Of a DNA stretch of 64,000 nucleotides, positions 12,159 to 46,365 are shown piece after piece. Source of the stretch: Candidatus Caccoplasma intestinavium (lineage in GTDB: Bacteria; Bacteroidota; Bacteroidia; Bacteroidales; UBA11471). Under the pieces are notes generated by a model that saw only the letters and a list, made by a program, of their open reading frames with translations, searched no databases and had not been told where the DNA came from. Position 1 is the stretch's first letter, and every line of letters starts with the position of its first letter. A program made the translations under genes and the position numbers. The stretch is taken from NCBI GenBank assembly GCA_018715885.1, contig DVKT01000022.1, positions 24,119 to 88,118 of the forward strand. The letters are read 5' to 3'.

Positions 12159-12256
12159 AATCGAAAAACTATAATTTGGCAGAATATGCCATTTTGTGTA
12201 ATTTTGGAGGTAAAATTAGCGAATCTTCCCGGGACGCGCAAATGATATTGAGACGA

Positions 12257-12721: not shown

Positions 12722-12848
12722 AAATCTCAGGAAAATATTTCATTACAGAATATTCTCGTTAAAAAAAATCAAATAGATATTATTCAAGAAACTTTCTTCT
12801 TTTTCGTGTGTCTTTATGAATAAAAGTTTCATTTATAAATTTACCGTC

Positions 12849-13388: not shown

Positions 13389-13421
13389 CTTCTCATTCAT
13401 TATTTCGCATGTAATTTTTCA

Positions 13422-13453
13422 AAAAGCAGCTCGGTGTTCCGAGCTGCTTTTTT
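13422..13453 (+). terminator. Rho-independent terminator
   Basis: aaaagcagctcgg-tgtt-ccgagctgctttt is a perfect 13-bp stem followed by a T-run. Confidence 0.8.
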
Positions 13454-13539
13454 ATAATATCAAATAATCTATCCCTTCATTTCGAATAAATTTTACAGAA
13501 AACCATATCTTTGCAATAGCTTTATAGATTTGTAAAAAT

Positions 13540-14910
13540 ATGGCTAAACTCAAAACTGTATATGTGTGTACCCAATGCGGTGCAGAGTCCCCTAAATGGA
13601 TCGGGAAATGCCCCTCATGTGGAGAATGGAACAGTTATGTCGAAGAAGTGATCAGTTCAAAATCTTCTACGACACAAAGCCCGTCGTATAGCACCGACTC
13701 CCCTCGTTCAAAACCTCAAAAACTCGAAGAAATCTCCATTTCGCAAGAAGAAAGAATCGACTTGCACGACACGGAATTGAACAGAGTTTTAGGGGGGGGG
13801 CTCGTTCCGGGGTCGATGGTATTGATCGGTGGAGAGCCCGGTATCGGAAAATCTACTCTCGTTTTACAGACCGTACTGGGTCTGACAGGGAAAAAAGTCC
13901 TTTATGTATCGGGAGAAGAAAGTGCCCGCCAACTGAAAATGAGAGCAGACAGACTACACCGCAACAATCCCGATTGTTATATCGTATGTGAAACTTCCCT
14001 CGAAGAAATATTTGTGCACATACGTAATGTACAACCCGACATCGTTATTATCGACTCGATACAGACTATCTCGACGCAGTCTATTGAATCTTCTCCCGGT
14101 AGTATTTCACAAGTACGAGAATGTGCTGCATCTATATTGAAATTTGCCAAAGAAACCCATACGCCGGTACTGGTCATCGGGCACATCAATAAAGAGGGAA
14201 GCATCGCAGGGCCCAAAGTATTGGAACATATTGTCGATGCGGTCTTGCAATTCGAAGGAGACCGGCATTACATGTACCGGATTTTACGTTCTATAAAGAA
14301 CCGATTCGGTAGCACAGCCGAATTAGGAATTTATGAAATGTTGCAAAACGGGCTTCGGGAAGTAAGCAATCCTTCGGAATTATTGCTTACGCAAGATCGT
14401 GAGGGGCTGAGCGGTGTAGCCATATCCGCCGCCATAGAAGGGATACGTCCCTTTCTTATCGAAGTACAATCTCTTGTAAGTACGGCGGCCTACGGAACGC
14501 CGCAAAGATCGGCAACAGGGTTCGATCTGCGACGCATGAACATGTTGCTTGCCGTATTGGAAAAAAGAGTCGGTTTCAAACTCGCTCAAAAAGATGTCTT
14601 TCTCAATATTGCCGGAGGATTGAAAGTCAATGATCCGGCAATGGACTTGGGCGTAATCAGTGCCGTCTTGTCTTCTAATATGGACATGGCGATAGAACGG
14701 GACATTGCCATGACCGGAGAAGTCGGCTTATCAGGTGAAATACGCCCTGTTACTCGGGTCGAACAGCGTATCCTTGAAGCCGAGAAACTTGGCTTCAAGC
14801 GTATACTCGTTCCGATCCTTAACTTAAAAGGTTTCGACTCAAAGCGACTGCAAATAGAAATCACACCGGTACGGAAAGTCGATGAAGCCTTCCGTCAATT
14901 ATTCGGATAA
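13540..14910 (+). CDS. radA: DNA repair protein RadA
   Basis: 456 aa. N-terminal zinc ribbon (CTQCGAESPKWIGKCPSCGEWNS), Walker A (GEPGIGKST), KNRFG motif and a Lon-like C-terminus. Confidence 0.95.
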   Translation: MAKLKTVYVCTQCGAESPKWIGKCPSCGEWNSYVEEVISSKSSTTQSPSYSTDSPRSKPQKLEEISISQEERIDLHDTELNRVLGGGLVPGSMVLIGGEPGIGKSTLVLQTVLGLTGKKVLYVSGEESARQLKMRADRLHRNNPDCYIVCETSLEEIFVHIRNVQPDIVIIDSIQTISTQSIESSPGSISQVRECAASILKFAKETHTPVLVIGHINKEGSIAGPKVLEHIVDAVLQFEGDRHYMYRILRSIKNRFGSTAELGIYEMLQNGLREVSNPSELLLTQDREGLSGVAISAAIEGIRPFLIEVQSLVSTAAYGTPQRSATGFDLRRMNMLLAVLEKRVGFKLAQKDVFLNIAGGLKVNDPAMDLGVISAVLSSNMDMAIERDIAMTGEVGLSGEIRPVTRVEQRILEAEKLGFKRILVPILNLKGFDSKRLQIEITPVRKVDEAFRQLFG

Positions 14911-29488: not shown

Positions 29489-30871
29489 TTATACGGCGTT
29501 CTCATCGCCTTTCAATAAGAGAACAAAGGTGAGAAATATTATTTTCAAATCCAATAAGATGTTCCAGTTTTCGATATACCAAATGTCGTATTCGACCCTT
29601 TTTTCCATCTGCCACAATTCCCGGGTTTCTCCCCTGTAACCGTTGATCTGCGCCCAACCGGTAAGACCGGGTTTCACGAAATGGCGTACCATATATTTTT
29701 CTATAATGGCAGAATAATCTCGGGTATGCTTCAACATGTGAGGGCGCGGCCCGACAAAAGACATATCTCCCTTTAAAATATTAAAAATTTGCGGCAGTTC
29801 GTCGAGGCTTGTTTTACGTAAAAAATGTCCGATTCGCGTAATACGCGGATCGTTGGCTGTTGCTTGTAATTTATCGGCATCTACATTAATACGCATTGTC
29901 CTAAACTTTAAGCAATTAAACTCTTTTCCCATATATCCGGTACGTTTCTGCCGAAAAAGAACTGGGCCAGGAGAAGAGAGCTTTACCATGAATGCAATCG
30001 GCAAATACCATATAGGGGCCAACAAAGTAATGATCAAAGACAAAAGGAAGTCAAAAAATCGTTTCGCACATCGCCCTGTCCACCTTTGCAACGGTTCTTT
30101 GCAAATCGAAAGTAATGGTATATTCCCCATTATCTGATAATGCAGCCGTCGAGGTATATACTGTGATATTTCCGGCAAAATAAAGAAACGGATTCCATTT
30201 TGTTCCGAGAAATACAACAAATCTATAATCTTCCTATTCTCTTTATCGGGTAATGCGCAATATATTTCATCGACTTGATTATCGAGACAAAACGTCCCGA
30301 CCGCTCCTATATCTCCCCTAAACTGCGGAACGAATTTCTCAAAAGACATATCATTATCGAAAAAGCCCAAGAAGCGGAAACCATATCCTGCATCGGATTG
30401 CAACTCATTATACAAAGAAATCCCCGCCGGACCTGCACCGACGATAACGACACGTTTGAAATTATATCCGCGACTGCGAATATATCGAAGTATCCGGTTC
30501 GATAACAACCACCAAAGATTCAAGATACAGAAGAAAAAGGCAAAAAGCAGTAACAATCTCGTCGAATCGATATAGACTTTCACACATGCCATACATGCCG
30601 AAAATACCAAAAAAGAGAAAAAAACCGATTCCGATGCTATCAGCAGCAATCGGTCGATGCACACGATACGCATATTATGTACATACCTGAAAAAAAAGGC
30701 TATGGGCAAATACGACAAATTCAATAAAAGGCAAACGATTCTTCTCGAAAGGGCATCGGTAAAGGTATCGGGATAAAAATATAATAAAAGCAAAAAGGCG
30801 ACATTGAGACACACAAAGTCGCCTAAGGTTATTAGTTTACTAATTAAATGACCGAAACCTTTCCTTATCAT
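29489..30871 (-). CDS. Undecaprenyl-phosphate glucose/galactose phosphotransferase (WcaJ-like sugar transferase), second copy in the window
   Basis: 460 aa. TMs plus KRFFDFLLS..., LKFRTM and DELPQIFNILKGDMSFVGPRP. Confidence 0.85.
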   Translation of the reverse strand: MIRKGFGHLISKLITLGDFVCLNVAFLLLLYFYPDTFTDALSRRIVCLLLNLSYLPIAFFFRYVHNMRIVCIDRLLLIASESVFFSFLVFSACMACVKVYIDSTRLLLLFAFFFCILNLWWLLSNRILRYIRSRGYNFKRVVIVGAGPAGISLYNELQSDAGYGFRFLGFFDNDMSFEKFVPQFRGDIGAVGTFCLDNQVDEIYCALPDKENRKIIDLLYFSEQNGIRFFILPEISQYIPRRLHYQIMGNIPLLSICKEPLQRWTGRCAKRFFDFLLSLIITLLAPIWYLPIAFMVKLSSPGPVLFRQKRTGYMGKEFNCLKFRTMRINVDADKLQATANDPRITRIGHFLRKTSLDELPQIFNILKGDMSFVGPRPHMLKHTRDYSAIIEKYMVRHFVKPGLTGWAQINGYRGETRELWQMEKRVEYDIWYIENWNILLDLKIIFLTFVLLLKGDENAV

Positions 30872-32951: not shown

Positions 32952-33725
32952 CTATTCATAGATTTCAATGCAACCGAAACCAAGACTTATCTTATCGCCC
33001 AGCCCCGTGTTGTGTATGAGCTGTTGCAAAACCGGATGCAACGTAAGTCTGAACTTGCACATATAACCTATGACCTTAGATTCTTCTCTCGTAAACCGCT
33101 TTATAAATATACCTTTACGCTTAGGCGGGGCTATCAGTTCAAATTTAAAATTGCTTTCATACGGAAAATCTTTTCCATAAAAATAGCTGTATTTTTCCAA
33201 TATCGTATGCAGCAACAGTTCTTCATAGTCGGGTGATTCAGGACCGATATATTCGAAACTGCGATTTGTTCTCATACAGGAAACGACAATAGGCGAAAGC
33301 GATAAATAAGTCATCGTTTCGGTATATTCCACCGGCTCGCTTTTATAGATTTCATCTATTTTGAAAGCAACCTGAGACTTCCTGTCTCCGACCAATATAT
33401 CTCTGCCCTGAAAGGCTCTTCTTATAAATTCTTCGCTTCCCCGCTCAGGCAAGGTCGAAATCCATAACTGTACCCTTTTGGCCAAAACATACAGACGGTC
33501 TTCTTCCACCTTTATCTTGGGTATATAAAAATTCGATACCGACAACAGTTTATACCGGGTATTCATTTCCGGCAAAAAACCATTCATACCCAACCATTGC
33601 TCATAAGCCCCTCTATCTTCTGTCAAGATTCTGTGTACACACGACGATAATTCATACTGATAACTTACCGGCAAAATATTTCCCGACAGCTCCGTCTGTA
33701 CAGATAGCACTAATTTAAATCGCAT
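32952..33725 (-). CDS. cas6: Cas6-like RAMP endoribonuclease (orphan, no CRISPR array or other cas genes in the window)
   Basis: 257 aa. N-terminus MRFKLVLSV...ILPVSYQYELSSCVHRIL is typical of Cas6. The C-terminal glycine-rich loop GLGDKISLGFG fits G-h-G-x5-G-h-G. Confidence 0.65.
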   Translation of the reverse strand: MRFKLVLSVQTELSGNILPVSYQYELSSCVHRILTEDRGAYEQWLGMNGFLPEMNTRYKLLSVSNFYIPKIKVEEDRLYVLAKRVQLWISTLPERGSEEFIRRAFQGRDILVGDRKSQVAFKIDEIYKSEPVEYTETMTYLSLSPIVVSCMRTNRSFEYIGPESPDYEELLLHTILEKYSYFYGKDFPYESNFKFELIAPPKRKGIFIKRFTREESKVIGYMCKFRLTLHPVLQQLIHNTGLGDKISLGFGCIEIYE

Positions 33726-33789
33726 AATTTTTATCCTCCTTACATGTAAGTTTTATCTTACTTTTTCATCAAATCATATTGTGCTGTAT

Positions 33790-35034
33790 TCAACAGCTAT
33801 CCTGAGCTTTGTAATACAACGTAGACATATTATTGGCTCTAAATACCGCTTGTGCCGTCTTTTGCAACGATTCCGGCGTGATACGATAATATTTCTCGAC
33901 TTCCCTGTCTATCGATTCGGCAGCATCTATCAACTCAAAATAAGATAAATTCGCAGCCTTGTCGACATAACTCAAATTTGAAAAAAGATATCCCGTCTCG
34001 AACTTATGCACCATTTTACTGATTTCCTGTTCCGAGGCTGATTCCCTGCAAAGTCTCCCCAACTCCTCCTCTATGGCCTCGTCGGCCTGTTGTAACGAGA
34101 CACCTTGATTCAATCGGCCATTTATCAAAAAAAGACCCGCGTCAATATCACCCGTAATGCTTGCATCTATACTGGTAAAAAGCGACTTTTCCATAACCAA
34201 ACGGCGAAATAAGCGGGAAGAACGACCGTTTGACAGTATGTCCGACATCAAATCACAGGTCTGATAATCGGCATCGCATCGTCGGCCCATATGATAAGCT
34301 TTCACGATGGCATCAGAAGGGATGTCTCTGACAACCTCTTTATAGCGAGGCGCTTCCTGCTCCGGCTCGGGCAAGATACAACGTGGTGCTATATTTCTTT
34401 TCTCAATAGGAGAAAACCACTTTTCGGATAAGCGCAAAGCCTCTTCAAAAGAAATATCGCCGACCACTGCCAAAATTGCATTATTGGGAGCATAATGGTT
34501 ATAAAAAAAAGATCTTACATCTTCGAGCGTAGCTTTCTCTATATGAGATATATCCCGGCCTATCACCGGCCAGCGGTAAGGATGCTCCCGATAAGCCAAT
34601 TCCCGTATAATGGCAGGAATATCCCCATAAGGTTGATTCAATGTCCGTTGCTTGAACTCTTCCATAACAACGGCCTTTTGCACATCAAGGCTATGTTGGG
34701 AAAAATCCAACCCCAACATTCGGTCGGATTCCAACCAAAAGGCAGTCTCTACATTTTGCCGGGGAACTATCGTATAATAATTTGTAATGTCATTACTCGT
34801 CCATGCATTGTTTTCACCTCCGGCCTTTTGCAACGCCGTATCGAAATCGGGGATATGAAGCGACCCGCCAAACATAAGATGCTCAAAAAGATGCGCAAAA
34901 CCCGTACAATCCGGAGACTCGTCCCGAGCCCCCACATCATACAACAGATTTATAGCGACCATTCGCGTATTGCTATCGGCATGATGCAACAGTCTCAATC
35001 CATTGAGAAATTGATATTTATTTACGGTTATCAC
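33790..35034 (-). CDS. M16-family (pitrilysin/insulinase) zinc peptidase
   Basis: 414 aa. Inverted zinc motif HLFEHLMFGG (HxxEH). Confidence 0.85.
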   Translation of the reverse strand: MITVNKYQFLNGLRLLHHADSNTRMVAINLLYDVGARDESPDCTGFAHLFEHLMFGGSLHIPDFDTALQKAGGENNAWTSNDITNYYTIVPRQNVETAFWLESDRMLGLDFSQHSLDVQKAVVMEEFKQRTLNQPYGDIPAIIRELAYREHPYRWPVIGRDISHIEKATLEDVRSFFYNHYAPNNAILAVVGDISFEEALRLSEKWFSPIEKRNIAPRCILPEPEQEAPRYKEVVRDIPSDAIVKAYHMGRRCDADYQTCDLMSDILSNGRSSRLFRRLVMEKSLFTSIDASITGDIDAGLFLINGRLNQGVSLQQADEAIEEELGRLCRESASEQEISKMVHKFETGYLFSNLSYVDKAANLSYFELIDAAESIDREVEKYYRITPESLQKTAQAVFRANNMSTLYYKAQDSC

Positions 35035-35040
35035 TTATCT

Positions 35041-35868
35041 TCAATCCAAAACTTTCATGCTCATTTTTATATCATGTTCCGGCCGGTCTCCATTACGAGT
35101 CGGGACAGATTGTATTCGATCCAAGACATCAAAACCTTCGACCACCTCTCCGAAAACCGTATAATCACCGTCCAAATGCGGAGATCCTCCGATTGTCGTA
35201 TAGGCCTGCTTCTGATCGGGAGAAAAACGTACAGCTCCATCTTTCTTCATAATCTCTTTCGTTTCTTTTATGAGATTATCCTGTAATTCCGATAATGCAG
35301 TCTGATTTCTTTCCAAACGATATTGCATAATCTCTTTGCGACGCTTCGATAACAACGATTGGAATACCATTTCCTCTTTTCGCCGGGTCAATTGCTGTTC
35401 CATCGAAGCCAACTGACCATCGGTAAAAATAGTTCCGGTAACAATATAAAACTGCGACCCCGAAGATTCTTTTCTTGGATTTACATTATCTCCTTGACGA
35501 GCTGCCGCCAACGCACCTTTTTTATGGAAATGAGACGGTGTGAATTCTGCCGGAATCGTATACCCTGGCCCACCTGTACCCAAAGATTGCTCGGACCCGG
35601 CCTGCCGGGAATCGGGATCGCCGCCTTGTATCATAAAGTCTTTTATCACTCTATGAAATAATAAATCCTCATAAAAACCACTATTCACCAACTTAATAAA
35701 ATTATCTCTATGTCCCGGTGTGTCATTATACAACTTCACAATAATTTCTCCAAGATCGGTTTTTATCGATACATATGTATGGGTTTTATCACGCATGGTA
35801 CAAGACGACATAAATAAGATTATAGAAACTATAAGTACGAATTTATTACACATTCCAAACCTCCTCAT
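35041..35868 (-). CDS. Cyclophilin-type peptidyl-prolyl isomerase lipoprotein with an internal helical insertion
   Basis: FHRVIKDFMIQGGDP, SQFYIV and TVFGEVVEG motifs. Start ambiguous between 35898, 35868 and 35853. MRRFGMCNKFVLIVSIILFMSSC reads as a lipoprotein signal. Confidence 0.85.
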   Translation of the reverse strand: MRRFGMCNKFVLIVSIILFMSSCTMRDKTHTYVSIKTDLGEIIVKLYNDTPGHRDNFIKLVNSGFYEDLLFHRVIKDFMIQGGDPDSRQAGSEQSLGTGGPGYTIPAEFTPSHFHKKGALAAARQGDNVNPRKESSGSQFYIVTGTIFTDGQLASMEQQLTRRKEEMVFQSLLSKRRKEIMQYRLERNQTALSELQDNLIKETKEIMKKDGAVRFSPDQKQAYTTIGGSPHLDGDYTVFGEVVEGFDVLDRIQSVPTRNGDRPEHDIKMSMKVLD

Positions 35869-36033
35869 TTTTACATCGAAGGCATTAAACATCTGCACTA
35901 TTTTACTTTTGAAAGAAAAATATACTTTTTGTTTGGTAGCAAATTTACACCTTTACACAATACCCTGCAAGGCTTTTCTGTAAAAAAATTTTCCCTGTTA
36001 TGCATAAATTCCCCTATTTCCATAAATTATTCG

Positions 36034-36041
36034 TATATTTG
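36034..36041 (+). promoter_or_regulatory. -7 box TATATTTG upstream of cysQ
   Basis: Matches TAnnTTTG, 27 nt before ATG 36069. It lies inside the longer track ORF (36000), supporting the shorter start. No clear -33 TTTG. Confidence 0.35.
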
Positions 36042-36068
36042 CAAATCAGTAGATGTATTTTTCTTATC

Positions 36069-36878
36069 ATGACTACCGAAAATTTATTATTGCTTGCTAT
36101 ACGCGCTGCATTAGAGGCCGGGGCGGACATTCGTCGTATCTACAACAATCCGGGAAACGACTTCGATATCGAATACAAGGCCGATAATTCACCATTGACA
36201 ATCGCCGACAAAACATCTGATGCCACGATCGAAAAGCACCTCAAATCTACCCCCTATCCTATCCTCACCGAAGAAAAAAAGGCTTTACCTTTCGAGGAAC
36301 GGAAAAAATGGGAGAAATTATGGATTGTAGATCCGCTCGACGGAACAAAAGAATTTATAAAACGAAACGGTGAATTTACCGTAAACATTGCGTTGGTCGA
36401 AAACGGTTTGCCGACTTTGGGCGTTATTTACGTACCGATAAAAAAAAGTCTTTATTTCGGAGAGATCAATTCAGGTGGTTACCGGGTAGACGACATTACC
36501 GATTTACAAGAAAGCGGTTCTTTTCAAAACTTGATTTCATTGTCCTGTCCACTACCGCAATCCGATCCGCAACGTCCTTATACAGTTGTTGCATCACGCT
36601 CCCACCTTTCACCCGAAACAGAAGTATTTATAAACGACCTGCGTAAAAAACACCATGAAATCGAAATCGTATCGATAGGCAGTTCCTTGAAAATATGTTT
36701 AGTATGTGAGGGTGCTGCGGATATATACCCTAGATTTGCACCTACAATGGAATGGGATACGGCCGCCGGTCATGCCATAGCTCGTGCTACAGGTAAAAAT
36801 ATTTTTCACACCGATAGAAAAACCCCTATCAGTTACAACAAAGAAGATCTTCACAACCCCTGGTTCATAGTGGAATAA
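36069..36878 (+). CDS. cysQ: 3'(2'),5'-bisphosphate nucleotidase (PAP phosphatase)
   Basis: Inositol-monophosphatase fold motifs (WIVDPLDGTKEF, WDTAAGHAI). Confidence 0.85.
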   Translation: MTTENLLLLAIRAALEAGADIRRIYNNPGNDFDIEYKADNSPLTIADKTSDATIEKHLKSTPYPILTEEKKALPFEERKKWEKLWIVDPLDGTKEFIKRNGEFTVNIALVENGLPTLGVIYVPIKKSLYFGEINSGGYRVDDITDLQESGSFQNLISLSCPLPQSDPQRPYTVVASRSHLSPETEVFINDLRKKHHEIEIVSIGSSLKICLVCEGAADIYPRFAPTMEWDTAAGHAIARATGKNIFHTDRKTPISYNKEDLHNPWFIVE

Positions 36879-36898
36879 ATAAACATTTCAGAAAAAAG

Positions 36899-37498
36899 AT
36901 GGAAAAACATATATACCCGATATTCGATCGCATGCTGCAACGCAACGATCGGGAAAAACTACTTGGGCAAAAAGGTATCATGTTATGGTTCACCGGTCTT
37001 TCCGGATCGGGCAAAAGCACTTTGGCCATAGCACTCGAACGCGAGTTATACAATAGCGGTATATTATGCCGTATCCTCGACGGCGACAATATCCGTACCG
37101 GCATCAACAACAACTTGGGATTTACCGAAGCCGATCGGGTAGAAAACATACGTCGCATAGCAGAAGTTGCCAAACTATTTGTCGATTGCGGAGTCGTAAC
37201 AATCGCTGCATTCATCAGCCCGACAGAACAAATACGACAAATGGCCGCCGATATAATCGGGAAAGACGATTTTTTCGAAATTTATGTAAATACACCTCTG
37301 GAAGTTTGCGAAGAAAGAGATGTCAAAGGGTTATACAAGAAAGCCCGACAAGGAGAAATAAAAAACTTTACGGGCATATCCGCTCCGTTCGAAGCGCCAC
37401 TCAATCCTGCCATAACCATTGATACTTCGGCCTGCTCACTGGAAGAAAGCGTAAATTTACTCAAAAAAATCATTATTCCTCAAATAAAGCCCATATAG
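36899..37498 (+). CDS. cysC: Adenylyl-sulfate (APS) kinase
   Basis: 199 aa. [10 protein letters not shown]-loop, LDGDNIR, and the FISP motif. Confidence 0.95.
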
Positions 37499-37572
37499 GA
37501 TTTCTTTGCTTTCAGAGAAATAGCTACATTTGCGGCATTGAAATAACGAGACAATCAGAAAAACAAATAATA

Positions 37573-38481
37573 ATGTCAGAATACAAACTGAGCCACTTGA
37601 AAGAATTGGAATCGGAATCGATTCATATCATACGGGAAGTGGCTGCCGAATTTGAAAATCCGGTTATGTTATATTCCATAGGCAAAGACTCGTCGGTCAT
37701 GGTACGGCTGGCCGAAAAGGCTTTTGCTCCCGGAAAAGTACCTTTCCCCCTAATGCACATCGACTCGAAATGGAAATTCAAAGAAATGATAGAATTTCGA
37801 GACAAGTACGCCCAAGAACACAACTGGAACCTAATCGTAGAATACAATAAAGAAGCATACGAAGCCGGTGTAGGGCCGTTTACGCATGGCAGTAAAGTTC
37901 ATACCGACCTGATGAAGACCCAGGCTTTGCTCCACGCTTTGGACAAATACAAATTCGACGCCGCTTTCGGAGGTGCCCGTCGCGACGAAGAGAAATCCAG
38001 AGCCAAAGAACGAATTTTCTCTTTCAGAGATCGTTTCCATCAATGGGATCCCAAGAATCAAAGACCCGAATTATGGGATATCTATAATACCCGCGTACAC
38101 AAAGGCGAGTCGATACGTGTATTCCCGCTCTCGAACTGGACCGAATTAGACATTTGGCAATATATCCGTCTCGAAAATATTCCTATCGTTCCCCTATATT
38201 TTGCCAAAGAACGACCCATCGTCAATATCGACGGGAATCTCATCATGGTCGACGACGACCGTATGCCCGAAGCATATCGCAAACAAGCACAAATGATGAA
38301 AGTCCGTTTCCGTACCCTCGGTTGTTATCCGCTCACAGGCGCTATCGAATCGGAAGCCGATACAATAGAAAAAATCGTCGAAGAAATGATGACGACAACA
38401 AAAAGTGAACGAACTACACGAGTTATCGACTTTGACCAAGAAGCCAGTATGGAACAAAAAAAACGTGAAGGATATTTCTAA
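37573..38481 (+). CDS. cysD: Sulfate adenylyltransferase subunit 2
   Basis: 302 aa. PAPS-reductase-fold SIGKDS motif. C-terminal [10 protein letters not shown] is typical of CysD. Confidence 0.95.
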
Positions 38482-38495
38482 GCCATTGAGAAAAC

Positions 38496-40259
38496 ATGAA
38501 CGAAACAAATATAAATAAGCTGGATATAAAAGAGTTTCTCGACCAAGATGAGAAAAAAGACCAGTTACGGTTATTGACGGCAGGATCGGTCGACGATGGA
38601 AAATCGACCCTTATAGGCCGACTTCTCTTCGATAGCAAAAAATTGTATGAAGATCAGCTCGATGCCCTTCAACGAGACAGCAAACGAGTAGGTAATGCAG
38701 GAGGAAATATTGATTACGCTCTCCTTCTTGATGGATTGAAAGCTGAACGCGAACAAGGGATTACTATCGATGTTGCCTACCGCTATTTTTCTACAAATAA
38801 ACGGAAATTCATCATCGCAGATACTCCGGGACACGAACAATATACGCGCAACATGATTACCGGCGGATCGACGGCCAATCTGGCAATTATATTGGTCGAC
38901 GCACGTACAGGAGTCATCACCCAAACCCGTCGGCACACTTACCTCGTGTCGCTGCTGGGAATCAAACATATCGTCCTGGCAGTAAATAAAATGGACTTGG
39001 TACAATACAACCAAAAGACGTTTGACGAAATCGTAGATACGTACAAGAAGTTTGTTGCCCCGTTAGCCATACCCGATATTACATGTATTCCCCTCTCCGC
39101 CCTCAATGGAGACAATGTTGTCGAGAAATCTGAGAATATGCCGTGGTATAAAGGTACATCACTATTGGATTTTCTCGAAACCGTACACATCGCAAACGAC
39201 CACAATCTGAAAGATTTCCGTTACCCCATACAATACGTGTTACGTCCCAATCTCAATTTCAGGGGATTCTCCGGCCGTATCGCTTCGGGCATCGTACGCA
39301 AAGGCGATGAAGTAATGGCAATCCCGTCAGGTAAAAAATCTCATGTCAAATCGATCGTAACATACGATGGTGAACTCGATGAAGCATTTTCGCCTCAATC
39401 CATCACCATAACACTCGAAGACGAGATAGACCTATCCCGCGGGGAAATGCTCGTACACCCCGACAATATTCCCCACATCAGCCGAAACTTCGAAGCCATG
39501 CTCGTATGGATGGACGAAAAACCCATGCAGCGAGACCAACAATATTTTATCAAGCAGACGACAAATACCACTCGCGTTCACATCGACCAAATCAAATACA
39601 AAGTCGATGTCAACACCATGGAGCAATCTATGGCCGAAACAATGAGTCTGAATGAAATAGCCCGCGCCGTATTCGTCTCGAACAAACCCCTGTTTTTCGA
39701 TTCTTACAAGCAAAACAAAAACTGCGGCTCCTTCATACTCATCGACCCAATTACCAACAATACAAGTGCCGTGGGTATGATCATAGACGAAGTGAACAGT
39801 TCCGATCTTTCCTCGGCTGTAACCGAAGAAGACCGTAAAAAAACACGCGACGGTATTTCTTTGGTATCGGACAGTGAACGGGAAAGACTTATCGGTCAAG
39901 CAGGCAAACTCTTTATCATCGCCGGCAACAACCTCTCTGTGCAACGGGAATGTGCCTATCTCTTGGAGCGCAGACTCTTCGATACCGGACACTTTGCCAT
40001 TGTACTCGACGCTCAAAAATTAGGTATCGACGGGAAATCCCAAACCGCAGCATTTGCTGCCATTGCAACCGAACTTACCCGGAAAGGTATTATTACGATA
40101 TGTATCGATCTGTATGGCGAAATAACAGTCGACAATGCCTTTACCATAGCCATTGCCGAAGATTCGATCCAACCTGTCGATAAAAACAAAGACTACTGCA
40201 CAGTGTGCCAGCAACATTTGGCCGCCACGATCGAAGATATTATCAATATAAAACTTTGA
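38496..40259 (+). CDS. cysN: Sulfate adenylyltransferase subunit 1 (GTPase) with a ~155-aa C-terminal degenerate APS-kinase-like domain
   Basis: 587 aa. G1 [17 protein letters not shown] and NKMD motifs. Residues ~433-587 align by eye to the neighbouring CysC but lack the P-loop. Confidence 0.9.
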
Positions 40260-40261
40260 AC

Positions 40262-41365
40262 ATGGGATTCAATTTTCAAAAGTTACCGGTAAATACCTTG
40301 ATTGGGGCAGACTGGAAAACATTTCACGAAGTAACAGCCGGTCGCAAAATCGACAAGGGATATAAAACCAAATATCACCTCACCAAGGCCCTTTGTCGTA
40401 TATTAAGTCTAACGAACGGAATCGAAAACCGTCGTTACAATAAGAGACTAGCCGATAAATCCATTGAAAATGCCCCGGTATTCATTCTCGGTCATTGGCG
40501 CAGTGGGACAACTTTTGTCCACAACGTACTTTCACAAGATAAGCAATTCGGATACAATACCACCTACCAGACGGTATTTCCCCACATGATGCTTTTCGGA
40601 CAACCGGTATTCAAGAAAATGGCTGCTATGGCTATTCCTAAGAAACGGCCTACCGACAATATGGAATTGAAAGCCGATCAACCGCAAGAAGAAGAATTTG
40701 CGCTCGTAAACATGAGCCCCTATACGTTCTACAACTTTTGGTTCTATCCACATTATACGCAAGAGTATAGTAAAAAATATCTCCTTTTCGAAGATGCGAC
40801 GAGAGATGAAATCGAGAAGTTCAAAAAAACATTCGAACGGCTCATCAAAATCTCTCTATGGAATACACGAGGAGAACGTTTTCTCTCAAAAAATCCCCCC
40901 CATACAGGACGGATTAAAACGTTACTCGAAATGTTTCCCGATGCCAAATTCATTTACTTGATGCGAAACCCGTATACCGTTTTCGAATCGACACGCAATT
41001 TCTTTACCAACACCATACAACCCTTGAAACTCCAAGATATCTCCGAAAAAGAAATTGTCGACAATATCATCAAGGTATATACCGACCTTTATTTCCGTTA
41101 TCAAGAAGATAAGAAACTTATACCCGAAGGAAATCTCATCGAAATAAAGTTTGAAGATTTCGAGCAAAACTCGCTCGAAATGACACAAAAAATTTATGAG
41201 ACACTTTCTTTACCGGGATTTGAAAAAGCCCGTCCCCAAATCGAAGCTTATATCAACGGGAAAAAGGGTTACAAAAAAAATAAATATAACTATGACCCGG
41301 AAACAGTGCATATCGTCGAGGAAAATTGGGATTTCGCACTGAAAGATTGGGGATATAAACTATAA
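40262..41365 (+). CDS. PAPS-dependent sulfotransferase family protein
   Basis: Start at MGFNFQ, 3 nt after the cysN stop. 5'-PSB-like loop HWRSGTTF and 3'-PB-like YLMRNPYTVFES. Confidence 0.8.
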   Translation: MGFNFQKLPVNTLIGADWKTFHEVTAGRKIDKGYKTKYHLTKALCRILSLTNGIENRRYNKRLADKSIENAPVFILGHWRSGTTFVHNVLSQDKQFGYNTTYQTVFPHMMLFGQPVFKKMAAMAIPKKRPTDNMELKADQPQEEEFALVNMSPYTFYNFWFYPHYTQEYSKKYLLFEDATRDEIEKFKKTFERLIKISLWNTRGERFLSKNPPHTGRIKTLLEMFPDAKFIYLMRNPYTVFESTRNFFTNTIQPLKLQDISEKEIVDNIIKVYTDLYFRYQEDKKLIPEGNLIEIKFEDFEQNSLEMTQKIYETLSLPGFEKARPQIEAYINGKKGYKKNKYNYDPETVHIVEENWDFALKDWGYKL

Positions 41366-41386
41366 TCATCAAAAAAACCAAACATA

Positions 41387-41414
41387 AAAGGCCGGTAAAT
41401 ATTACTGGCCTTTT
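41387..41414 (+). terminator. Terminator after the sulfotransferase gene
   Basis: aaaggccggt-aaatatt-actggccttt forms a 10-bp stem with one G-T pair, followed by a T-containing tail. Confidence 0.6.
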
Positions 41415-41563
41415 ATGTTAATCACCCTCAAAGATTCTCAAATATAAGTATTCCGACATCACAAAGCGCCGCCTTTTGCTTGGATATGTTGAGAAATATT
41501 TCTTTCTTTGTTTGTGAAAATATTTGATCGAAAAATTTCGATACTTTAAATCTGAAAAACTAT

Positions 41564-43336
41564 ATGAAAAACTATCCAAAAATCGGTATTCGTCCGACTA
41601 TTGACGGACGTCAGGGTGGCGTGAGAGAAAGCCTCGAAGAAAAAACGATGAACCTTGCAAAAGCAGTTGCAGAGCTTATTTCAAGTAATGTAAAGTATAG
41701 CGACGGTACACCGGTGCAATGCGTTATTGCCGACGGCACAATAGGCCGTGTCGGTGAAACGGCGGCCTGCCAGGCCAAATTCGAACGCGAAGGCGTCGGT
41801 GCGACCATTTCGGTTACCTCCTGTTGGTGTTACGGTTCCGAAACCATGGATATGCACCCGTATTGGCCGAAAGCTGTTTGGGGATTCAACGGTACAGAAC
41901 GCCCCGGTGCCGTATATTTGGCAGCCGTATTGGCAGCTCACGCTCAAAAAGGATTACCCGCATTCGGAATCTACGGGCACGATGTGCAAGATCTTGACGA
42001 CAACACTATCCCCGAAGACGTAGCCGAAAAGATTCTCCGCTGGGCTCGCTCCGCCATTGCCGTCGCACAAATGCGCGGTGAAAGTTACTTGTCGATAGGC
42101 AGCCAGTGCATGGGTATAGCAGGCAGCATCATCGATCAGGACTTTTTCCAAGAATACCTCGGTATGCGCAATGAAAGCGTGGACGAAGTGGAAATACTCC
42201 GCCGTATGGACGAAGGTATTTATGATAAAGAAGAATATGCAAAAGCAATGGCATGGGTAGAAAAATATTGTAAACCCAATGAAGGATGGGACAAAAATCG
42301 TCCTGAAAAACAAAAAGACCGCCCCGCCAAAGACGCCGACTGGGAATTTGTTGTAAAAATGACGCTCATAATACGCGACTTGATGATCGGGAACCCCAGA
42401 TTGAAAGAACTCGGATTCAAAGAAGAGGCTATCGGGCACAATGCTATTGCCGCCGGTTTTCAAGGCCAACGCCAATGGACAGACTGGAAACCCAACGGCG
42501 ATTTCAGTGAAGCTCTTATGTGTAGTACTTTCGATTGGAACGGCATTCGTGAATCATATGTATTGGCAACCGAAAACGATGCTTGTAACGGCGTTGCCAT
42601 GCTATTCGGTAAGCTCTTGACCGGCTGCGGACAAATGTTCTCCGATGTACGTACCTATTGGAGTCCCGAAGCCGTAAAACGTGTTACGGGCAAAGAACTT
42701 ACCGGTCTTGCCGCCAACGGTATCATACACCTCATCAACTCGGGTGCCACGACCCTCGACGCAACCGGAGCCAGTATCAATGCAGCAGGGGAAGCTTGTA
42801 TGAAACCTTGCTGGGAAATGACCGATGCCGACGCCGAGGCCTGTTTGAAAAATACCAGTTGGTTACCAGCCGATCGGGATTATTTCCGTGGTGGAGGTTA
42901 TTCTTCTCATTTCTTGTCGAAAGGAGGTATGCCGGTTACCATGTCCCGCCTCAATCTTGTAAAAGGCCTCGGCCCTGTATTGCAAATTGCCGAAGGTTGG
43001 ACTGTCGATGTAGCTCCCGAAATTTTCGAGGTCATCAACAAACGCACCGATCCTACTTGGCCTACCACATGGTTCGCTCCCCGCTTGTGCGATAAACCGG
43101 CATTTAAAGATGTATATTCGGTAATGAATAACTGGGGAGCCAACCACGGCGCGATTTCTTATGGTCATATCGGAGCCGATCTCATCACATTGGCATCAAT
43201 GCTTCGCATACCTGTATGCATGCACAATGTCGAGGAAGACAAGATTTTCCGTCCCTCGGCATGGAATGCATTTGGTATGGACAAAGAAGGTGCCGACTAT
43301 CGCGCTTGTGCCGCTTACGGACCTATCTACAAATAA
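41564..43336 (+). CDS. fucI: L-fucose isomerase
   Basis: 590 aa. The N-terminal [21 protein letters not shown] and the overall length are typical of FucI. Confidence 0.95.
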
Positions 43337-43367
43337 TATTTAACCCCAAAACCATTATTAAAAAACT

Positions 43368-44522
43368 ATGATCAACAGATTTGTTCTCAACGAAGTTTCA
43401 TACTTCGGCCCCGGTGCCCGAGAAGTATTGCCCAAAGAAGTAAAACGATTGGGACTGCACAAAGCATTTGTCGCCACAGACAAGGATCTCATTAAATTCG
43501 GAGTGGCCGATAAAGTTCTCAACGTACTGAAAGAAGCCGGTATTCCTTATGAAATATTCAGTGATATAAAACCGAATCCGACCGTAGCAAACGTAAAAGC
43601 CGGAGTAAAAGCATTTGCCGAATCGGGTGCAGATTTTATTCTAGCTATCGGTGGAGGTTCGTCCATCGACACATCGAAAGCGATCGGAATTATTACCAAC
43701 AACCCCGAATTCAGCGATGTCGTTTCTCTCGAAGGCGTAGCTGATACAAAAAAGAAATCGGTACCTATCATCGCCCTGCCCACCACCGCCGGTACAGCAG
43801 CAGAGGTAACCATCAACTATGTGATTACCGACGAGAAAAACGAAAAGAAAATGGTATGTGTCGATCCTAACGACATACCCGCAATCGCCATTATCGATGC
43901 CGAACTCATGTACACTCTTCCCAAAAGCCTTACAGCGGCAACCGGTCTCGATGCATTAACTCACGCTATCGAAGGGTTGATTACCAAAGGGGCTTGGGAA
44001 ATGAGCGACATGTTCGAAATAAAAGCCATCGAAATGATCAACCGTTATCTGGAAACAGCCGTCAACGAACCTCAAAATCCGGAAGCTCGCAACGGTATGG
44101 CCGTAGCTCAATATATCGCAGGTATGGCATTCTCAAATGTCGGCCTCGGTGTCGTACACGGTATGGCCCACCCGCTCGGAGCAATATTCGACATTCCTCA
44201 CGGCGTTGCCAATGCTTTGTTACTGCCTACCATCATGGAGTTCAATGCCCCAGCAGCTCTCGACAAATATGTAACCATTGCAAAAGCTATGAATGTTTAC
44301 AAAGACGGTATGAGCAAAGAAGAAGCTGCTCAAGCAGCCGTAGACGCAGTCAAATCCTTAGCTGTACGGGTAGGAATACCCCAGCATTTGAGTAAACTGG
44401 GAATCAAAGAGAGCGATCTGCCAAAGTTGGCCGATTCGGCTATTGCCGACGTTTGCACTCCCGGTAATCCGCGCGAAGTAACCCGGGATATTATCCTTGA
44501 TCTCTATCGCAAGGTTCTCTAA
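43368..44522 (+). CDS. fucO: Lactaldehyde reductase (Fe-dependent 1,2-propanediol oxidoreductase)
   Basis: 384 aa. Iron-ADH motifs (GGGSSIDTSK, His cluster HGMAHPLG...HG). Confidence 0.9.
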   Translation: MINRFVLNEVSYFGPGAREVLPKEVKRLGLHKAFVATDKDLIKFGVADKVLNVLKEAGIPYEIFSDIKPNPTVANVKAGVKAFAESGADFILAIGGGSSIDTSKAIGIITNNPEFSDVVSLEGVADTKKKSVPIIALPTTAGTAAEVTINYVITDEKNEKKMVCVDPNDIPAIAIIDAELMYTLPKSLTAATGLDALTHAIEGLITKGAWEMSDMFEIKAIEMINRYLETAVNEPQNPEARNGMAVAQYIAGMAFSNVGLGVVHGMAHPLGAIFDIPHGVANALLLPTIMEFNAPAALDKYVTIAKAMNVYKDGMSKEEAAQAAVDAVKSLAVRVGIPQHLSKLGIKESDLPKLADSAIADVCTPGNPREVTRDIILDLYRKVL

Positions 44523-44532
44523 TAGAATCCAC

Positions 44533-44569
44533 AGATTGTTAAGGCCTAAGGCCTTAACAATCTTTTTTT
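44533..44569 (+). terminator. Strong Rho-independent terminator between fucO and the mutarotase gene
   Basis: agattgttaaggcc-taa-ggccttaacaatct is a 14-bp perfect stem followed by a T7 run. Confidence 0.8.
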
Positions 44570-44590
44570 CTCTTAAATCTTAAAACACAC

Positions 44591-44977
44591 ATGGAAACAC
44601 CGCACACAGGATATAGGGTACAGTCATATAGCCAACCCGTTAAAAGATATTGTCAGACCCTCAATCTTAAAGAAAATCCCGAACTGATTGCTGAATATCG
44701 CAAACGGCACCTTAAAGAAAACGCCTGGCCCGAAATATTGGAGGGTATCAGAGAAGTAGGAATACTCGAAATGGAAATCTATATTTTAGGAAGCCGTCTA
44801 TTCATGATTGTAGAAACGCCTCTCGATTTCGACTGGGACGAGGCCATGCAACGCTTAAACACGCTGCCCCGCCAGCAAGAATGGGAAGATTATATGTCTA
44901 TTTTCCAACAAGCCAAACCGGGAGCATCATCGTCAGAGAAATGGCAGCAAATGGAGCGTATGTTTAAGCTCTACTAG
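44591..44977 (+). CDS. L-rhamnose mutarotase-family (RhaM/DUF718) protein, likely a deoxy-hexose mutarotase for the fucose locus
   Basis: 128 aa. KRYCQTLNLKENPELIAEYRKRH...WPEILEGIREVGILEMEIY matches the RhaM-family pattern. Confidence 0.8.
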   Translation: METPHTGYRVQSYSQPVKRYCQTLNLKENPELIAEYRKRHLKENAWPEILEGIREVGILEMEIYILGSRLFMIVETPLDFDWDEAMQRLNTLPRQQEWEDYMSIFQQAKPGASSSEKWQQMERMFKLY

Positions 44978-45138
44978 CATATCCAGACGAAAAACTATCA
45001 ACACACGAAAAAGAGGCTGCAAAGAAATTATCGGCCAACACATAGAACTCGTGTCATGAAAGAAATTTTCGTAGCAAAAAATAAATTCCTGAATGACGGG
45101 GATTTCTTTAATGTTAAATCTTTTCAAAAAACAAATGA

Positions 45139-46365
45139 ATGAAACAAAAAACAAGTTTGGTACGAATGGCAGACGGGAGAAATTTGCTAGTACCTTTTCT
45201 ATTGATAACAACACTCTTCTTTCTATGGGGATTTGCTCATAGCATTTTAGATGTCTTGAACAAACACTTTCAAGATGCATTGGGCATCAATAAAACAAAA
45301 TCGGCTCTGGTGCAAGCGGTCGTATATAGCGGATATTTTCTAATGGCTCTACCGGCAGGAGAAATCATACGGCGATTCGGATATAGAGTTGGAGTACTGA
45401 CGGGTTTACTTCTTTATGGGTGCGGAGCATTGTTATTCATTCCGGGCGGAGAAATAAAATCATTCGAATTTTTCTTATTTTCACTCTTCGTCATCGGCTG
45501 TGGATTGACCTGTCTGGAAACGGCAGCAAATCCATACGTAACGGTTTTGGGAGAAAAAAATTCTGCCGAACGTAGAATCAACTTAGCTCAATCTTTCAAC
45601 GGATTAGGCTGGATATGCGGTCCTCTGGTCGGAGGCTATTTCCTCTTCGGAAACGGTACCGGAGGAAACATTTCGATGCCGTATGCCATTATCGGAGGAG
45701 TAGCGTTACTAGTAGCCCTCCTATTTTCGCGGGTAAAGTTGCCCGAAATCACACCTGAGGTCGATTCTACGGAAAAGAACGCAGACGGGGAAACTACCAT
45801 ACATAAAAGTTTATGGAAACATAAAAACTTCACATACGGGCTTTTAGCATTATTTTTATATATAGCAGCTCAAACCGGTATCAATAGTTTTTTCATCAAT
45901 TATGCTACGGAAAATGCCAGCATATCGGCCCAAGAGGCATCTCTTTGGCTTTCGTTCGTCGGTATGGGGTTATTTACGGTAGGGCGTATGGGAGGTAGCT
46001 GGATCATGAGCAAAATACGTGCAGAAAAAGTATTGATCGTATGTGCTCTCGGTGCTACATTGGCTATGATACTGGCAATCTTTACATCGGGAATGGCTGG
46101 TGTAAGCAGCTTTTTCTTATGTTTCTTGTGCGAATCGATCATGTTCCCGACTATTTTTGCTTTATCCATTAGAGGATTGGGCGAACAGACCAAAAGAGCC
46201 TCTTCATTCTTGATCATGTCGATTGTCGGCGGTGCTATTGCACCTGTTCTAATGGGGTATATTGCCGATACCGTATCTATGTCTTGGGCTTTTCTCATTC
46301 CATTGGGCTGTTTCTTATTTATCTTAGGATTTGCATTAAGTTTCAAAAAACTTTTACAAGCATAA
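45139..46365 (+). CDS. fucP: L-fucose:H+ symporter permease (MFS)
   Basis: 408 aa with 12 predicted TMs. FFLWGFAHSILDVLNKHFQ is typical of FucP. Confidence 0.9.
   Translation: MKQKTSLVRMADGRNLLVPFLLITTLFFLWGFAHSILDVLNKHFQDALGINKTKSALVQAVVYSGYFLMALPAGEIIRRFGYRVGVLTGLLLYGCGALLFIPGGEIKSFEFFLFSLFVIGCGLTCLETAANPYVTVLGEKNSAERRINLAQSFNGLGWICGPLVGGYFLFGNGTGGNISMPYAIIGGVALLVALLFSRVKLPEITPEVDSTEKNADGETTIHKSLWKHKNFTYGLLALFLYIAAQTGINSFFINYATENASISAQEASLWLSFVGMGLFTVGRMGGSWIMSKIRAEKVLIVCALGATLAMILAIFTSGMAGVSSFFLCFLCESIMFPTIFALSIRGLGEQTKRASSFLIMSIVGGAIAPVLMGYIADTVSMSWAFLIPLGCFLFILGFALSFKKLLQA

Follow-up and report, generated by a model that had tools for sequence, protein, structure and literature searches.

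Organization of the locus

Five genes, in the order cysQ-cysC-cysD-cysN-sulfotransferase, lie on the same (+) strand between positions 36069 and 41365 of the window, the whole 64-kb stretch of DNA that was analysed, and are separated in turn by gaps of 20, 74, 14 and 2 nt (Table 1). The open reading frame list of the window confirmed the five co-directional genes and the coordinates proposed in a first-pass annotation, and profile scores assigned them to families: all four PAPS-pathway genes (cysQ, cysC, cysD and cysN) exceed the curated profile cut-offs. The cysQ product is 54-70% identical to that of the first gene of the orthologous clusters, and CysD is 85-96% identical to its cluster orthologs. 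The Walker A motif of CysC (GLSGSGKST) is intact.

Table 1. Features of the cassette, with their positions in the window and the evidence for each.
Feature	Position	Strand	Evidence
Candidate promoter TATATTTG	36034..36041	+	exact match to Bacteroidetes -7 consensus TAnnTTTG; motif match only
cysQ, 3'(2'),5'-bisphosphate nucleotidase, 269 aa	36069..36878	+	TIGR01331 249.9 bits vs cut-off 228.8; PF00459 E 1.5e-42
cysC, stand-alone APS kinase, 199 aa	36899..37498	+	PF01583 221 bits, E 9e-66; NF003013 253.7 bits vs cut-off 163
Second TAnnTTTG motif TACATTTG	37525..37532	+	in 74-nt cysC-cysD spacer; motif match only
cysD, sulfate adenylyltransferase small subunit, 302 aa	37573..38481	+	NF009214 507 bits vs cut-off 413
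cysN, whole gene, 587 aa	38496..40259	+	NF003478 710 bits vs cut-off 590
cysN core, residues 1-440: GTPase and domains II/III of sulfate adenylyltransferase large subunit	38496..39815	+	NF003478; TIGR02034 over residues 24-429
cysN C-terminal extension, residues 441-587, APS-kinase fold without catalytic motifs	39816..40259	+	BLASTP, alignment, AlphaFold2/Foldseek
Sulfotransferase, BtSULT clade, Sulfotransfer_3, 367 aa	40262..41365	+	PF13469 135.9 bits vs cut-off 27, E 3.2e-39
Intrinsic-terminator-like hairpin	41381..41419	+	18-bp stem, 3-nt loop, then UUUUAUGUU

The candidate promoter lies 28 nt 5' of the cysQ ATG and inside a longer alternative cysQ reading frame with its start at 36000, a location that makes 36069 the likelier true start. 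The TAnnTTTG consensus occurs 84 times in the window (60.6 expected). The density in shuffled sequence gives a chance of roughly 0.03-0.04 for a match on one strand of a 74-nt stretch, and TACATTTG may act as an internal promoter of cysD-cysN-sulfotransferase. A sigma-70 promoter scan did no better than shuffles. The hairpin, which begins 15 nt past the sulfotransferase stop codon, folds as RNA with -24.9 kcal/mol (z = -8.3), a value that no sequence among 200 shuffles reaches. Transcription would probably run from a Bacteroidetes-type promoter at the -7 motif upstream of cysQ to this hairpin, and these two features would mark the boundaries of the operon. A few kb upstream, at 29489-30871, is a sugar-transferase-like reading frame, a polysaccharide-biosynthesis gene named from its sequence only.

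A catalytically dead domain on CysN

A Pfam search of the C-terminal extension of CysN gave no match. BLASTP nonetheless relates the extension to the window's own CysC (E 4e-7), and the best 29 Foldseek matches of its AlphaFold2 model (pLDDT 79) are all APS kinases or the kinase domains of PAPS synthases. In the alignment the P-loop, the DGD motif and the lid are lost, a 10-residue Walker A relic is recognisable at 39921-39950, and LERRLFDxG is invariant. The dN/dS ratio is 0.08-0.13 for the extension and 0.017-0.038 for the CysN core. The extension is a conserved, catalytically dead APS-kinase-like fold under purifying selection; its role is probably non-catalytic, for example in oligomerisation, nucleotide sensing or docking.

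Two known architectures resemble it, and both are represented among the Foldseek matches. Bifunctional CysNC proteins (the NodQ type, and M. tuberculosis CysNC, kinase domain PDB 4rfv) have the same domain order, a GTPase-type CysN followed by an APS-kinase fold, but the CysN of the window has lost Walker A, the DGD motif and the lid segment, and its extension therefore cannot be a kinase. The allosteric APS-kinase-like domain of Penicillium chrysogenum ATP sulfurylase (PDB 1m8p) has likewise lost catalysis and retained the fold. That enzyme is homo-oligomeric, however, whereas the dead domain of the window sits on a GTPase-type (CysN) sulfurylase, where PAPS binding is only hypothetical.

The sulfotransferase and its orthologs

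Two nucleotides separate the cysN stop codon, which ends at 40259, from the sulfotransferase ATG, so that the spacing of 3 nt first reported was essentially right. Homologs all start with MG(L/F)..F.KLP, and this shared N-terminus supports the start at 40262 over an upstream in-frame GTG at 40205. The PAPS-binding loops named in the first-pass annotation are present and fall in invariant or near-invariant columns of the family: the 5'-phosphosulfate-binding loop HWRSGTTF occupies residues 78-85 (40493-40516) and the 3'-phosphate-binding motif RNPYTVFES residues 235-243 (40964-40990). G77, R80, G82, T83, T84, R129, D132, E143, K210, R235 and S243 are invariant across the wider family. The AlphaFold2 model has a pLDDT of 93.4, with the lowest confidence around residues 111-140 (79-86). 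Its best Foldseek matches are mycobacterial Stf9 (PDB 2z6v) and Stf1 (PDB 2zq5), at TM 0.66-0.71, followed by other PAPS-dependent sulfotransferases. These closest solved structures share the Sulfotransfer_3-type fold and the P-loop-like 5'-PSB and R...S 3'-PB motifs, but they are only 16-18% identical to the window protein, their acceptors are different or unknown, and their genes lie outside any cysQCDN operon.

The best 120 of 4518 homologs are 64-92% identical to the protein over 98-100% of its length and come from Bacteroides, Phocaeicola, Parabacteroides, Coprobacter and Prevotella. Beyond this clade identity falls sharply, the next full-length relatives being at most 45% identical. Full-length identity to the Bacteroides and Parabacteroides orthologs is about 66-68% (65-68% to the Parabacteroides sp. 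proteins sampled, 66.5% to B. faecis and 67.3% to B. ovatus), where the Bacteroides values refer to B. faecis, B. ovatus and B. congonensis proteins from the 90% cluster of BT_0416 or neighbouring ones rather than to BT_0416 itself. The first-pass annotation had left undecided whether the protein was an ortholog or a paralog of the Bacteroides enzyme; this identity, the same gene order and the placement in the clade mark it as an ortholog and not a distant paralog.

Within the Bacteroides/Parabacteroides clade, the window protein belongs to a subclade of six sequences that is sister to an 80-sequence crown clade containing every tested enzyme. The branches between the two are short (0.17 + 0.17). 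Of the 162 positions at which conservation within the crown clade reaches 97% or more, 153 (94%) are kept in the window protein, which also keeps H214 of NPPHTGR, where the wider-family consensus is N. Of the nine crown-conserved positions that are changed, six lie together within residues 121-140, immediately ahead of the invariant PQEEE motif, where the changes could alter acceptor binding. The substitutions specific to the subclade are M121A, L124A, D127K, L140Q, Q206R and S246N. Of 11 genomes from the same genus, 9 carry the gene, and the two that lack it are 79% and 83% complete.

Gene order and genome context

Among 80 related loci, cysN lies directly 5' of the sulfotransferase in about 58; wherever enough of the flanks is available, these loci follow the complete order cysQ-(permease)-cysC-cysD-cysN-sulfotransferase. 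In Prevotella and Alloprevotella the cys genes are not linked to the sulfotransferase. The cassette had been called self-contained. The PAPS enzymes and the sulfotransferase do lie together, but the term overstates the case, since the window cluster lacks the DASS/SLC13 permease gene that Bacteroides, Coprobacter and Parabacteroides carry between cysQ and cysC. No sulfate transporter gene is linked to the cassette, and the only DASS-family candidate in the genome is on another contig (C70). Downstream, a fucose locus stands where the clusters of those three genera carry a conserved gene for a secreted protein of about 320 aa.

The genome (2.5 Mb, 99.5% complete) has no NIR_SIR match for a sulfite reductase anywhere, the window included, whereas 11 of 14 control genomes have one. 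Matches to the PAPS_reduct fold are CysD, a 432-aa IbrA/DUF3440-like reading frame and three weak ones. The IbrA/DUF3440-like frame, the strongest of the extra matches, adjoins a ParB-like frame on contig C47; the profile search, with the CysD and C47 matches examined, revealed no recognisable cysH in the genome. The statement that the window lacks PAPS/APS reductase and sulfite reductase genes thus holds, and extends to what was recognised genome-wide. Genome searches with Sulfotransfer_1 and Sulfotransfer_3 returned the cassette's own enzyme only, and one with Sulfotransfer_2, run without a positive control, found none. All five cassette genes are single copy. The absence of a sulfite reductase, of a recognised cysH and of a second sulfotransferase indicates that PAPS is made for sulfonation and not for assimilation, as the first-pass annotation had proposed from the window.

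Relation to known sterol sulfotransferase loci

The parallel drawn with a locus of B. thetaiotaomicron proved correct: the PAPS genes Bt_0411-Bt_0415 adjoin BT_0416 (PMC9417993, Le et al. 2022), a sulfotransferase that forms cholesterol sulfate from cholesterol in E. coli, with PAPS in vitro, and also in vivo (PMC9417993). The two clusters share the enzyme set and order (cysQ ... cysC-cysD-cysN-sulfotransferase) and the PAPS-binding motifs, and the B. thetaiotaomicron genome likewise has no NIR_SIR match. The window differs in lacking the permease gene, in a CysN of 587 aa with a dead domain rather than of about 480-490 aa, in the 2-nt cysN-sulfotransferase spacer, in the fucose locus downstream, and in the basal position of its sulfotransferase, which is changed within residues 121-140. 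The sterol sulfotransferases of Parabacteroides merdae, P. goldsteinii and P. johnsonii fall in the same orthologous clade, and four Parabacteroides loci (L024, L031, L059 and L074) show the same linkage to cys genes; unlike the window, the clusters inspected in this genus encode a 601-aa permease and a short CysN. Tested members from these three species all sulfate cholesterol and sitosterol (PMC13696130), and sitosterol is sulfated by each of six Bacteroides/Parabacteroides homologs that share 75-98% identity with the P. merdae enzyme (PMC13696130). A passage of PMC13449962 citing Yao 2022 states that BtSULT prefers steroids with flat A/B rings.

Predicted function

The operon probably activates sulfate only for sulfonation, with the 3-OH of a flat sterol as the most likely acceptor. 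CysD and CysN would convert sulfate to APS, using ATP and GTP, the stand-alone CysC would phosphorylate APS to PAPS, and the BtSULT-clade enzyme would sulfonate a hydroxyl acceptor with PAPS as the donor, while CysQ would hydrolyse PAP, the inhibitory by-product. Sulfate presumably enters through a transporter encoded elsewhere in the genome. Orthology with BT_0416 and its Bacteroides/Parabacteroides relatives points to the 3-OH of cholesterol, phytosterols and other flat (5-ene or 5-alpha) steroids, which would be taken up from the gut lumen. Because the subclade branches outside all tested enzymes, this function is extrapolated beyond the bracket they form, and the acceptor is one that we infer.

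The basal position of the subclade also leaves some room for the same machinery acting on a hydroxy fatty acid, a bile-acid isomer, a phenolic xenobiotic or a lipid of the cell itself. The subclade-specific substitutions cluster near the invariant E143, non-steroid Sulfotransfer_3 enzymes occur in gut bacteria (ErSULT acts on hydroxy fatty acids; PMC13449962), and the neighbouring fucose locus replaces the usual secreted protein gene. We consider such an acceptor unlikely, given the crown-invariant positions and the H214 that are retained, the short branches, and the persistence of sterol activity across the distance between Bacteroides and Parabacteroides enzymes, which are 72-77% identical to each other (PMC13696130).

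It is considerably less probable that the cys genes provide PAPS for general use by a consumer not linked to them (a sulfated capsule or glycan, for example, or a further sulfotransferase), with the adjacent enzyme as only one user. The polysaccharide-biosynthesis genes upstream, the separability seen in Prevotella and Alloprevotella, and a Sulfotransfer_2 family whose absence is unproven would allow it, but the other sulfotransferase searches gave the cassette's enzyme only, the cysN-sulfotransferase linkage is kept in most of the loci compared, and the 2-nt junction with a single downstream terminator would argue for co-expression. In E. coli CysD, CysN and CysC catalyse the canonical first steps of sulfate assimilation, and the cassette might by that token serve cysteine synthesis, with reductive genes elsewhere or unrecognised. 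The missing NIR_SIR match in a nearly complete genome, the IbrA-like character of the strongest extra PAPS_reduct-fold gene in place of a cysH, and the pairing of CysQ with a sulfotransferase in one operon, which fits PAPS use by transfer, make assimilation highly improbable.

With sterol sulfonation as the preferred reading, the cassette is, judged by sequence, a further member of the already described system of PAPS synthesis and sterol sulfotransfer. Apart from two small structural twists, it is largely an ordinary gut Bacteroidales copy.

Organization of the cassette

Five open reading frames on the + strand make up the cassette, occupying positions 36069-41365 with spacers of 20, 74, 14 and 2 nt between them. 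Curated profiles name all five unambiguously. The starts listed for cysQ and for the sulfotransferase gene were preferred to longer versions beginning at 36000 and 40205, respectively, because homologs start at the same points; the position of the upstream -7 motif also counted against the longer cysQ.

Genes and predicted signals of the cassette (profile scores are followed by the cut-off of the profile)
Feature	Position	Strand	Evidence
cysQ	36069-36878	+	TIGR01331, 249.9 vs 228.8 bits
cysC	36899-37498	+	PF01583, E 9e-66; NF003013, 253.7 vs 163 bits
cysD	37573-38481	+	NF009214, 507 vs 413 bits
cysN	38496-40259	+	NF003478, 710 vs 590 bits
Sulfotransferase gene	40262-41365	+	PF13469 (Sulfotransfer_3), 135.9 vs 27 bits
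Candidate promoter TATATTTG	28 nt upstream of 36069	+	matches Bacteroidetes -7 consensus
Second Bacteroidetes -7-type motif	37525, cysC-cysD spacer	+	motif match
Terminator-like hairpin	begins 15 nt past the sulfotransferase stop	+	18-bp stem, U-rich tail, -24.9 kcal/mol, z = -8.3

Taken together, the close spacing, the -7 motifs and the hairpin make the cassette look like a single operon, perhaps with an internal promoter. A scan for sigma-70 promoters and terminators gave counts not above those in shuffled sequence and overlooked the hairpin, which was found by separate folding. An Rfam scan of 35500-41800 returned no riboswitch or leader, the sole matches being sub-threshold and located on the terminator hairpin. 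Past the terminator lies a fucose locus (41564-46365; fucI, fucO, a mutarotase-like gene and a fucP-like permease gene, all named from sequence only), and the same arrangement is found in L009 and L010, two related loci from rabbit-gut metagenome-assembled genomes (MAGs).

The two PAPS-binding loops that the first-pass annotation had picked out in the sulfotransferase were located at residues 78-85 and 235-243, and 57 diverse homologs all share R80, G82, T83, T84, R235 and S243. The protein has the 5'-phosphosulfate-binding loop, the 3'-phosphate-binding R...S motif and the P-loop-like alpha/beta fold. Its AlphaFold2 model has a pLDDT of 93.4, and all 50 of the matches listed by Foldseek, retinol dehydratase among them, have the sulfotransferase fold. 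A sequence search of the PDB returned only Stf9 and Stf1, and thus no solved structure from the clade of BT_0416 (BtSULT), the cholesterol/steroid sulfotransferase of Bacteroides thetaiotaomicron.

Orthology and tree position of the sulfotransferase

A word-index search yielded 4518 homologs of the sulfotransferase. The top 120, with 64-92% identity over nearly the full length, belong to Bacteroides, Phocaeicola, Parabacteroides, Coprobacter, Mediterranea and Prevotella. Against proteins of Bacteroides, Phocaeicola and Parabacteroides, full-length identity is 64-69%. Proteins of B. faecis (66.5% identity; its 90% cluster has 3246 members) and B. ovatus (67.3%) served as stand-ins for BT_0416 in this comparison. 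An exhaustive search of 50% representatives shows a steep drop after this group, with other full-length proteins at 45% identity or less.

A maximum-likelihood tree places the protein within the BtSULT clade, on a basal branch of six members (SH-aLRT 98) that also includes two rabbit-gut MAG loci and a protein from a "Porphyromonadaceae" MAG. The sister of this branch (SH-aLRT 98) is an 80-member clade, the crown, which holds every tested enzyme and spans Coprobacter, Parabacteroides, Bacteroides, Phocaeicola, Odoribacter and Prevotella. The first-pass annotation had allowed for either an ortholog of the B. thetaiotaomicron enzyme or a paralog with a different acceptor; the identity values, the gap to the next relatives and the tree placement favor the former. 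The protein is therefore an ortholog within the BT_0416 clade, but since it sits on the sister branch of the crown, the smallest group that brackets the tested enzymes does not include it. The sulfotransferase of a locus from a MAG labelled as Lachnospiraceae (Anaerobutyricum sp.; L025, CAVGKO010000101.1), with a cysN fragment upstream, nests among Parabacteroides sequences; a binning error is the likeliest cause, with transfer less probable.

Conserved gene order and the missing permease

BT_0416 sulfates cholesterol in E. coli, in PAPS-supplied in vitro reactions and in gnotobiotic mice, and is adjoined by Bt_0411-Bt_0415, which are described as PAPS genes and include a proposed sulfate importer, BT_0412 (Le et al. 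2022, PMC9417993). Six more homologs from Bacteroides and Parabacteroides, which share 75-98% identity with the enzyme of P. merdae, sulfate sitosterol (PMC13696130). The first-pass annotation had pointed to the same gene logic in B. thetaiotaomicron, and the order indeed matches, with cysQ upstream, then cysC-cysD-cysN and the sulfotransferase gene, all on one strand. The cysN gene lies immediately upstream of the sulfotransferase gene in about 58 of 80 related loci fetched for comparison, and loci with enough flanking sequence have the order cysQ, cysC, cysD, cysN, sulfotransferase. Loci L009 and L010 are collinear with the window over 32952-46365. In one Phocaeicola plebeius locus (L064, DSM 17135) cysN and the sulfotransferase gene are 929 nt apart, compared with 1-190 nt in the other loci, which suggests an insertion inside the cluster.

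The cassette shares its gene order and sulfotransferase clade with the B. thetaiotaomicron cluster but lacks an equivalent of the BT_0412 DASS/SLC13 permease. Clusters of Bacteroides, Coprobacter and Parabacteroides carry a gene for a 517-601-aa permease of this family between cysQ and cysC (found in loci L075, L038, L024, L028 and L037). No such gene occurs at that position in the window, where the gap is 20 nt, in L009 and L010, or in the Odoribacter loci. The genome has a single DASS-family gene, which lies away from the cassette on contig C70 (32844-34688); it encodes a 614-aa transporter that shares 27-28% identity with the Bacteroides permease and scores 166.9 bits against TIGR00785, under the cut-off of 198.6. 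This transporter, whose gene is preceded by three ORFs of 459-522 aa, is the only candidate sulfate importer found for the cassette. The description of the cassette as a self-contained PAPS supply is therefore not quite right: the five genes are present, but none of them provides for sulfate entry. Pst-like ABC genes upstream of another related cluster (L078) were considered as sulfate transporters and ruled out, as they scored as phosphate PstSCAB.

Clusters of Bacteroides, Coprobacter and Parabacteroides also have a gene for a secreted protein of about 320 aa after the sulfotransferase gene, which is absent from the window, L009 and L010. The protein (L075:9130-10098, L038:9126-10082, L024:9115-10080, L037:9143-10099) has a signal-peptide-like N-terminus and no NCBIfam match, and may be an unstudied component of the sulfonation cluster. 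In Prevotella and Alloprevotella the BtSULT-clade sulfotransferase gene is unlinked from cys genes: loci L013, L026, L033, L043, L048, L056, L080 and others of these genera have no cysQ, cysC, cysD or cysN within 8 kb of it. The sulfotransferase is uncoupled from the PAPS genes in these lineages.

A kinase-like tail on CysN

The window's CysN is 587 aa long, compared with about 480-490 aa in most clusters. Long forms occur in 13 of 56 scored loci, and mapping long and short forms onto the sulfotransferase tree requires at least four state changes. Residues 441-587 align to the window's own CysC (E 4e-7), although the tail has no match to PF01583 in Pfam even at E up to 10. Its AlphaFold2 model has a pLDDT of 79, and the 29 best fold matches are APS kinases and kinase domains of PAPS synthases; the kinase domain of M. 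tuberculosis CysNC and the ATP sulfurylase of P. chrysogenum, an enzyme that carries an allosteric domain, rank lower among the matches.

The catalytic motifs of bifunctional CysNC are missing from this tail. The GLSGSGKST Walker A of CysC is replaced by a degenerate segment, DAQK stands at the DGDN site and the lid segment is deleted. The LERRLFDxG motif is invariant across long CysN forms. In the two closest pairs, beyond which dS is saturated, the tail has dN/dS values of 0.13 and 0.08; for comparison, the CysN core gives 0.017-0.038 and the sulfotransferase 0.03-0.04. A word-index search with the C-terminal domain found only nine proteins because the domain diverges quickly, and the set analyzed was gathered from related loci instead. 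Loss of the catalytic motifs, together with low dN/dS, argues that the tail is dead as a kinase yet still constrained, and the constraint suggests a role other than catalysis.

Scored as a whole, CysN reaches 735.9 bits against NF004035 (bifunctional CysN/CysC), over the cut-off of 715, notwithstanding the dead kinase tail. A bifunctional CysNC was ruled out by the absence of a competent Walker A (GxxGxGKS/T), DGD(N) motif and lid, but annotation pipelines may misname long CysN forms in this way.

Use of PAPS in the genome

The genome (2.5 Mb in 77 contigs, estimated 99.5% complete) has no match to the sulfite/nitrite reductase family NIR_SIR, which was detected in 11 of 14 control genomes; B. 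thetaiotaomicron, one of the 14, is likewise without a match. Family searches of the genome found neither cysH nor the cysI/J reductive branch. Matches to the PAPS-reductase fold were limited to CysD, three weak matches and one 432-aa ORF on contig C47, which was ruled out as cysH by its length and its ParB-like neighbor. The 432-aa ORF is IbrA/DUF3440-like and runs into the beginning of a ParB-like ORF of 196 aa (C47 ~11800-13600; L002:1429-3238), and the two are an IbrAB-type pair with no tie to sulfur metabolism.

Each of the five cassette genes is single copy. Searches of the genome with Sulfotransfer_1 and Sulfotransfer_3 found the cassette's enzyme as the sole match, and a search with Sulfotransfer_2, run without a positive control, was negative. 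With no sulfite reductase or cysH and a single sulfotransferase, PAPS is therefore for transfer rather than assimilation, and what had been proposed from the window holds across the genome.

Proposed pathway and alternatives

The most probable reading, which we hold with good confidence, is that the cassette activates sulfate from an unlinked transporter, sulfonates a sterol-type 3-OH and clears the PAP that results. Sulfate would enter through a transporter encoded away from the cassette; CysDN would convert it to APS and CysC would convert APS to PAPS. The sulfotransferase would then move the sulfo group of PAPS to a sterol-type acceptor of the gut lumen, at its 3-OH, and CysQ would clear PAP. 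In the passage of PMC13449962 that cites Yao et al. 2022, BtSULT is described as preferring steroids with flat A/B rings, and from its sequence relationships we infer that the window's enzyme probably carries out PAPS-dependent sulfonation of cholesterol or such steroids. Gene identities, motifs, fold, orthology, synteny and the lack of reduction genes are shown here, and on them the enzyme's activity and acceptor, the operon limits and the path of sulfate entry are inferred. What the first-pass annotation observed is confirmed, and its interpretation is supported. The locus adds to the published sulfonation system and departs from it modestly in two ways, lacking an in-cluster permease and bearing a CysN pseudo-kinase tail.

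The same machinery might act on a different acceptor in the window's basal subclade. The protein retains 153 of 162 residues with at least 97% conservation in the crown; of the nine it has changed, six lie within residues 121-140, just N-terminal to an invariant PQEEE motif. We regard a shifted acceptor as unlikely, though it is the leading alternative. The activation genes might instead be a general PAPS supply for another consumer, which is poorly supported given the single sulfotransferase found, and is decidedly improbable. Assimilatory sulfate activation, for which the CysDN and CysC steps would also serve, is poorly supported given the absence of reductive genes, and we give it almost no weight.

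A further reading, which we offer as speculative, joins two of these features: the subclade's acceptor would have diverged from that of BtSULT through residues 121-140, and the CysN pseudo-kinase would be a working regulatory or scaffolding module. The pseudo-kinase could sense APS or PAPS, or could dock CysC or the sulfotransferase for PAPS channelling. In that case, the fungal allosteric ATP-sulfurylase domain would have a GTPase-type counterpart in bacteria. The tree pattern suggests that a regulatory CysN pseudo-kinase may be ancestral to the entire Bacteroidales sulfonation cluster.

Bacterial sterol sulfonation alters host cholesterol and cholesterol-sulfate levels (PMC9417993) and yields circulating phytosterol sulfates (PMC13696130). 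The sulfotransferase gene is conserved in the window's genus, and the nearest named records, L009 and L010, come from rabbit gut. The locus extends the reach of the pathway to a small-genome, uncultured genus of Bacteroidales. It is a naturally minimal cluster without a permease gene, with a version of CysN that retains a dead kinase domain, and each of these features is useful for learning which components the cluster needs and how the supply of PAPS is regulated.
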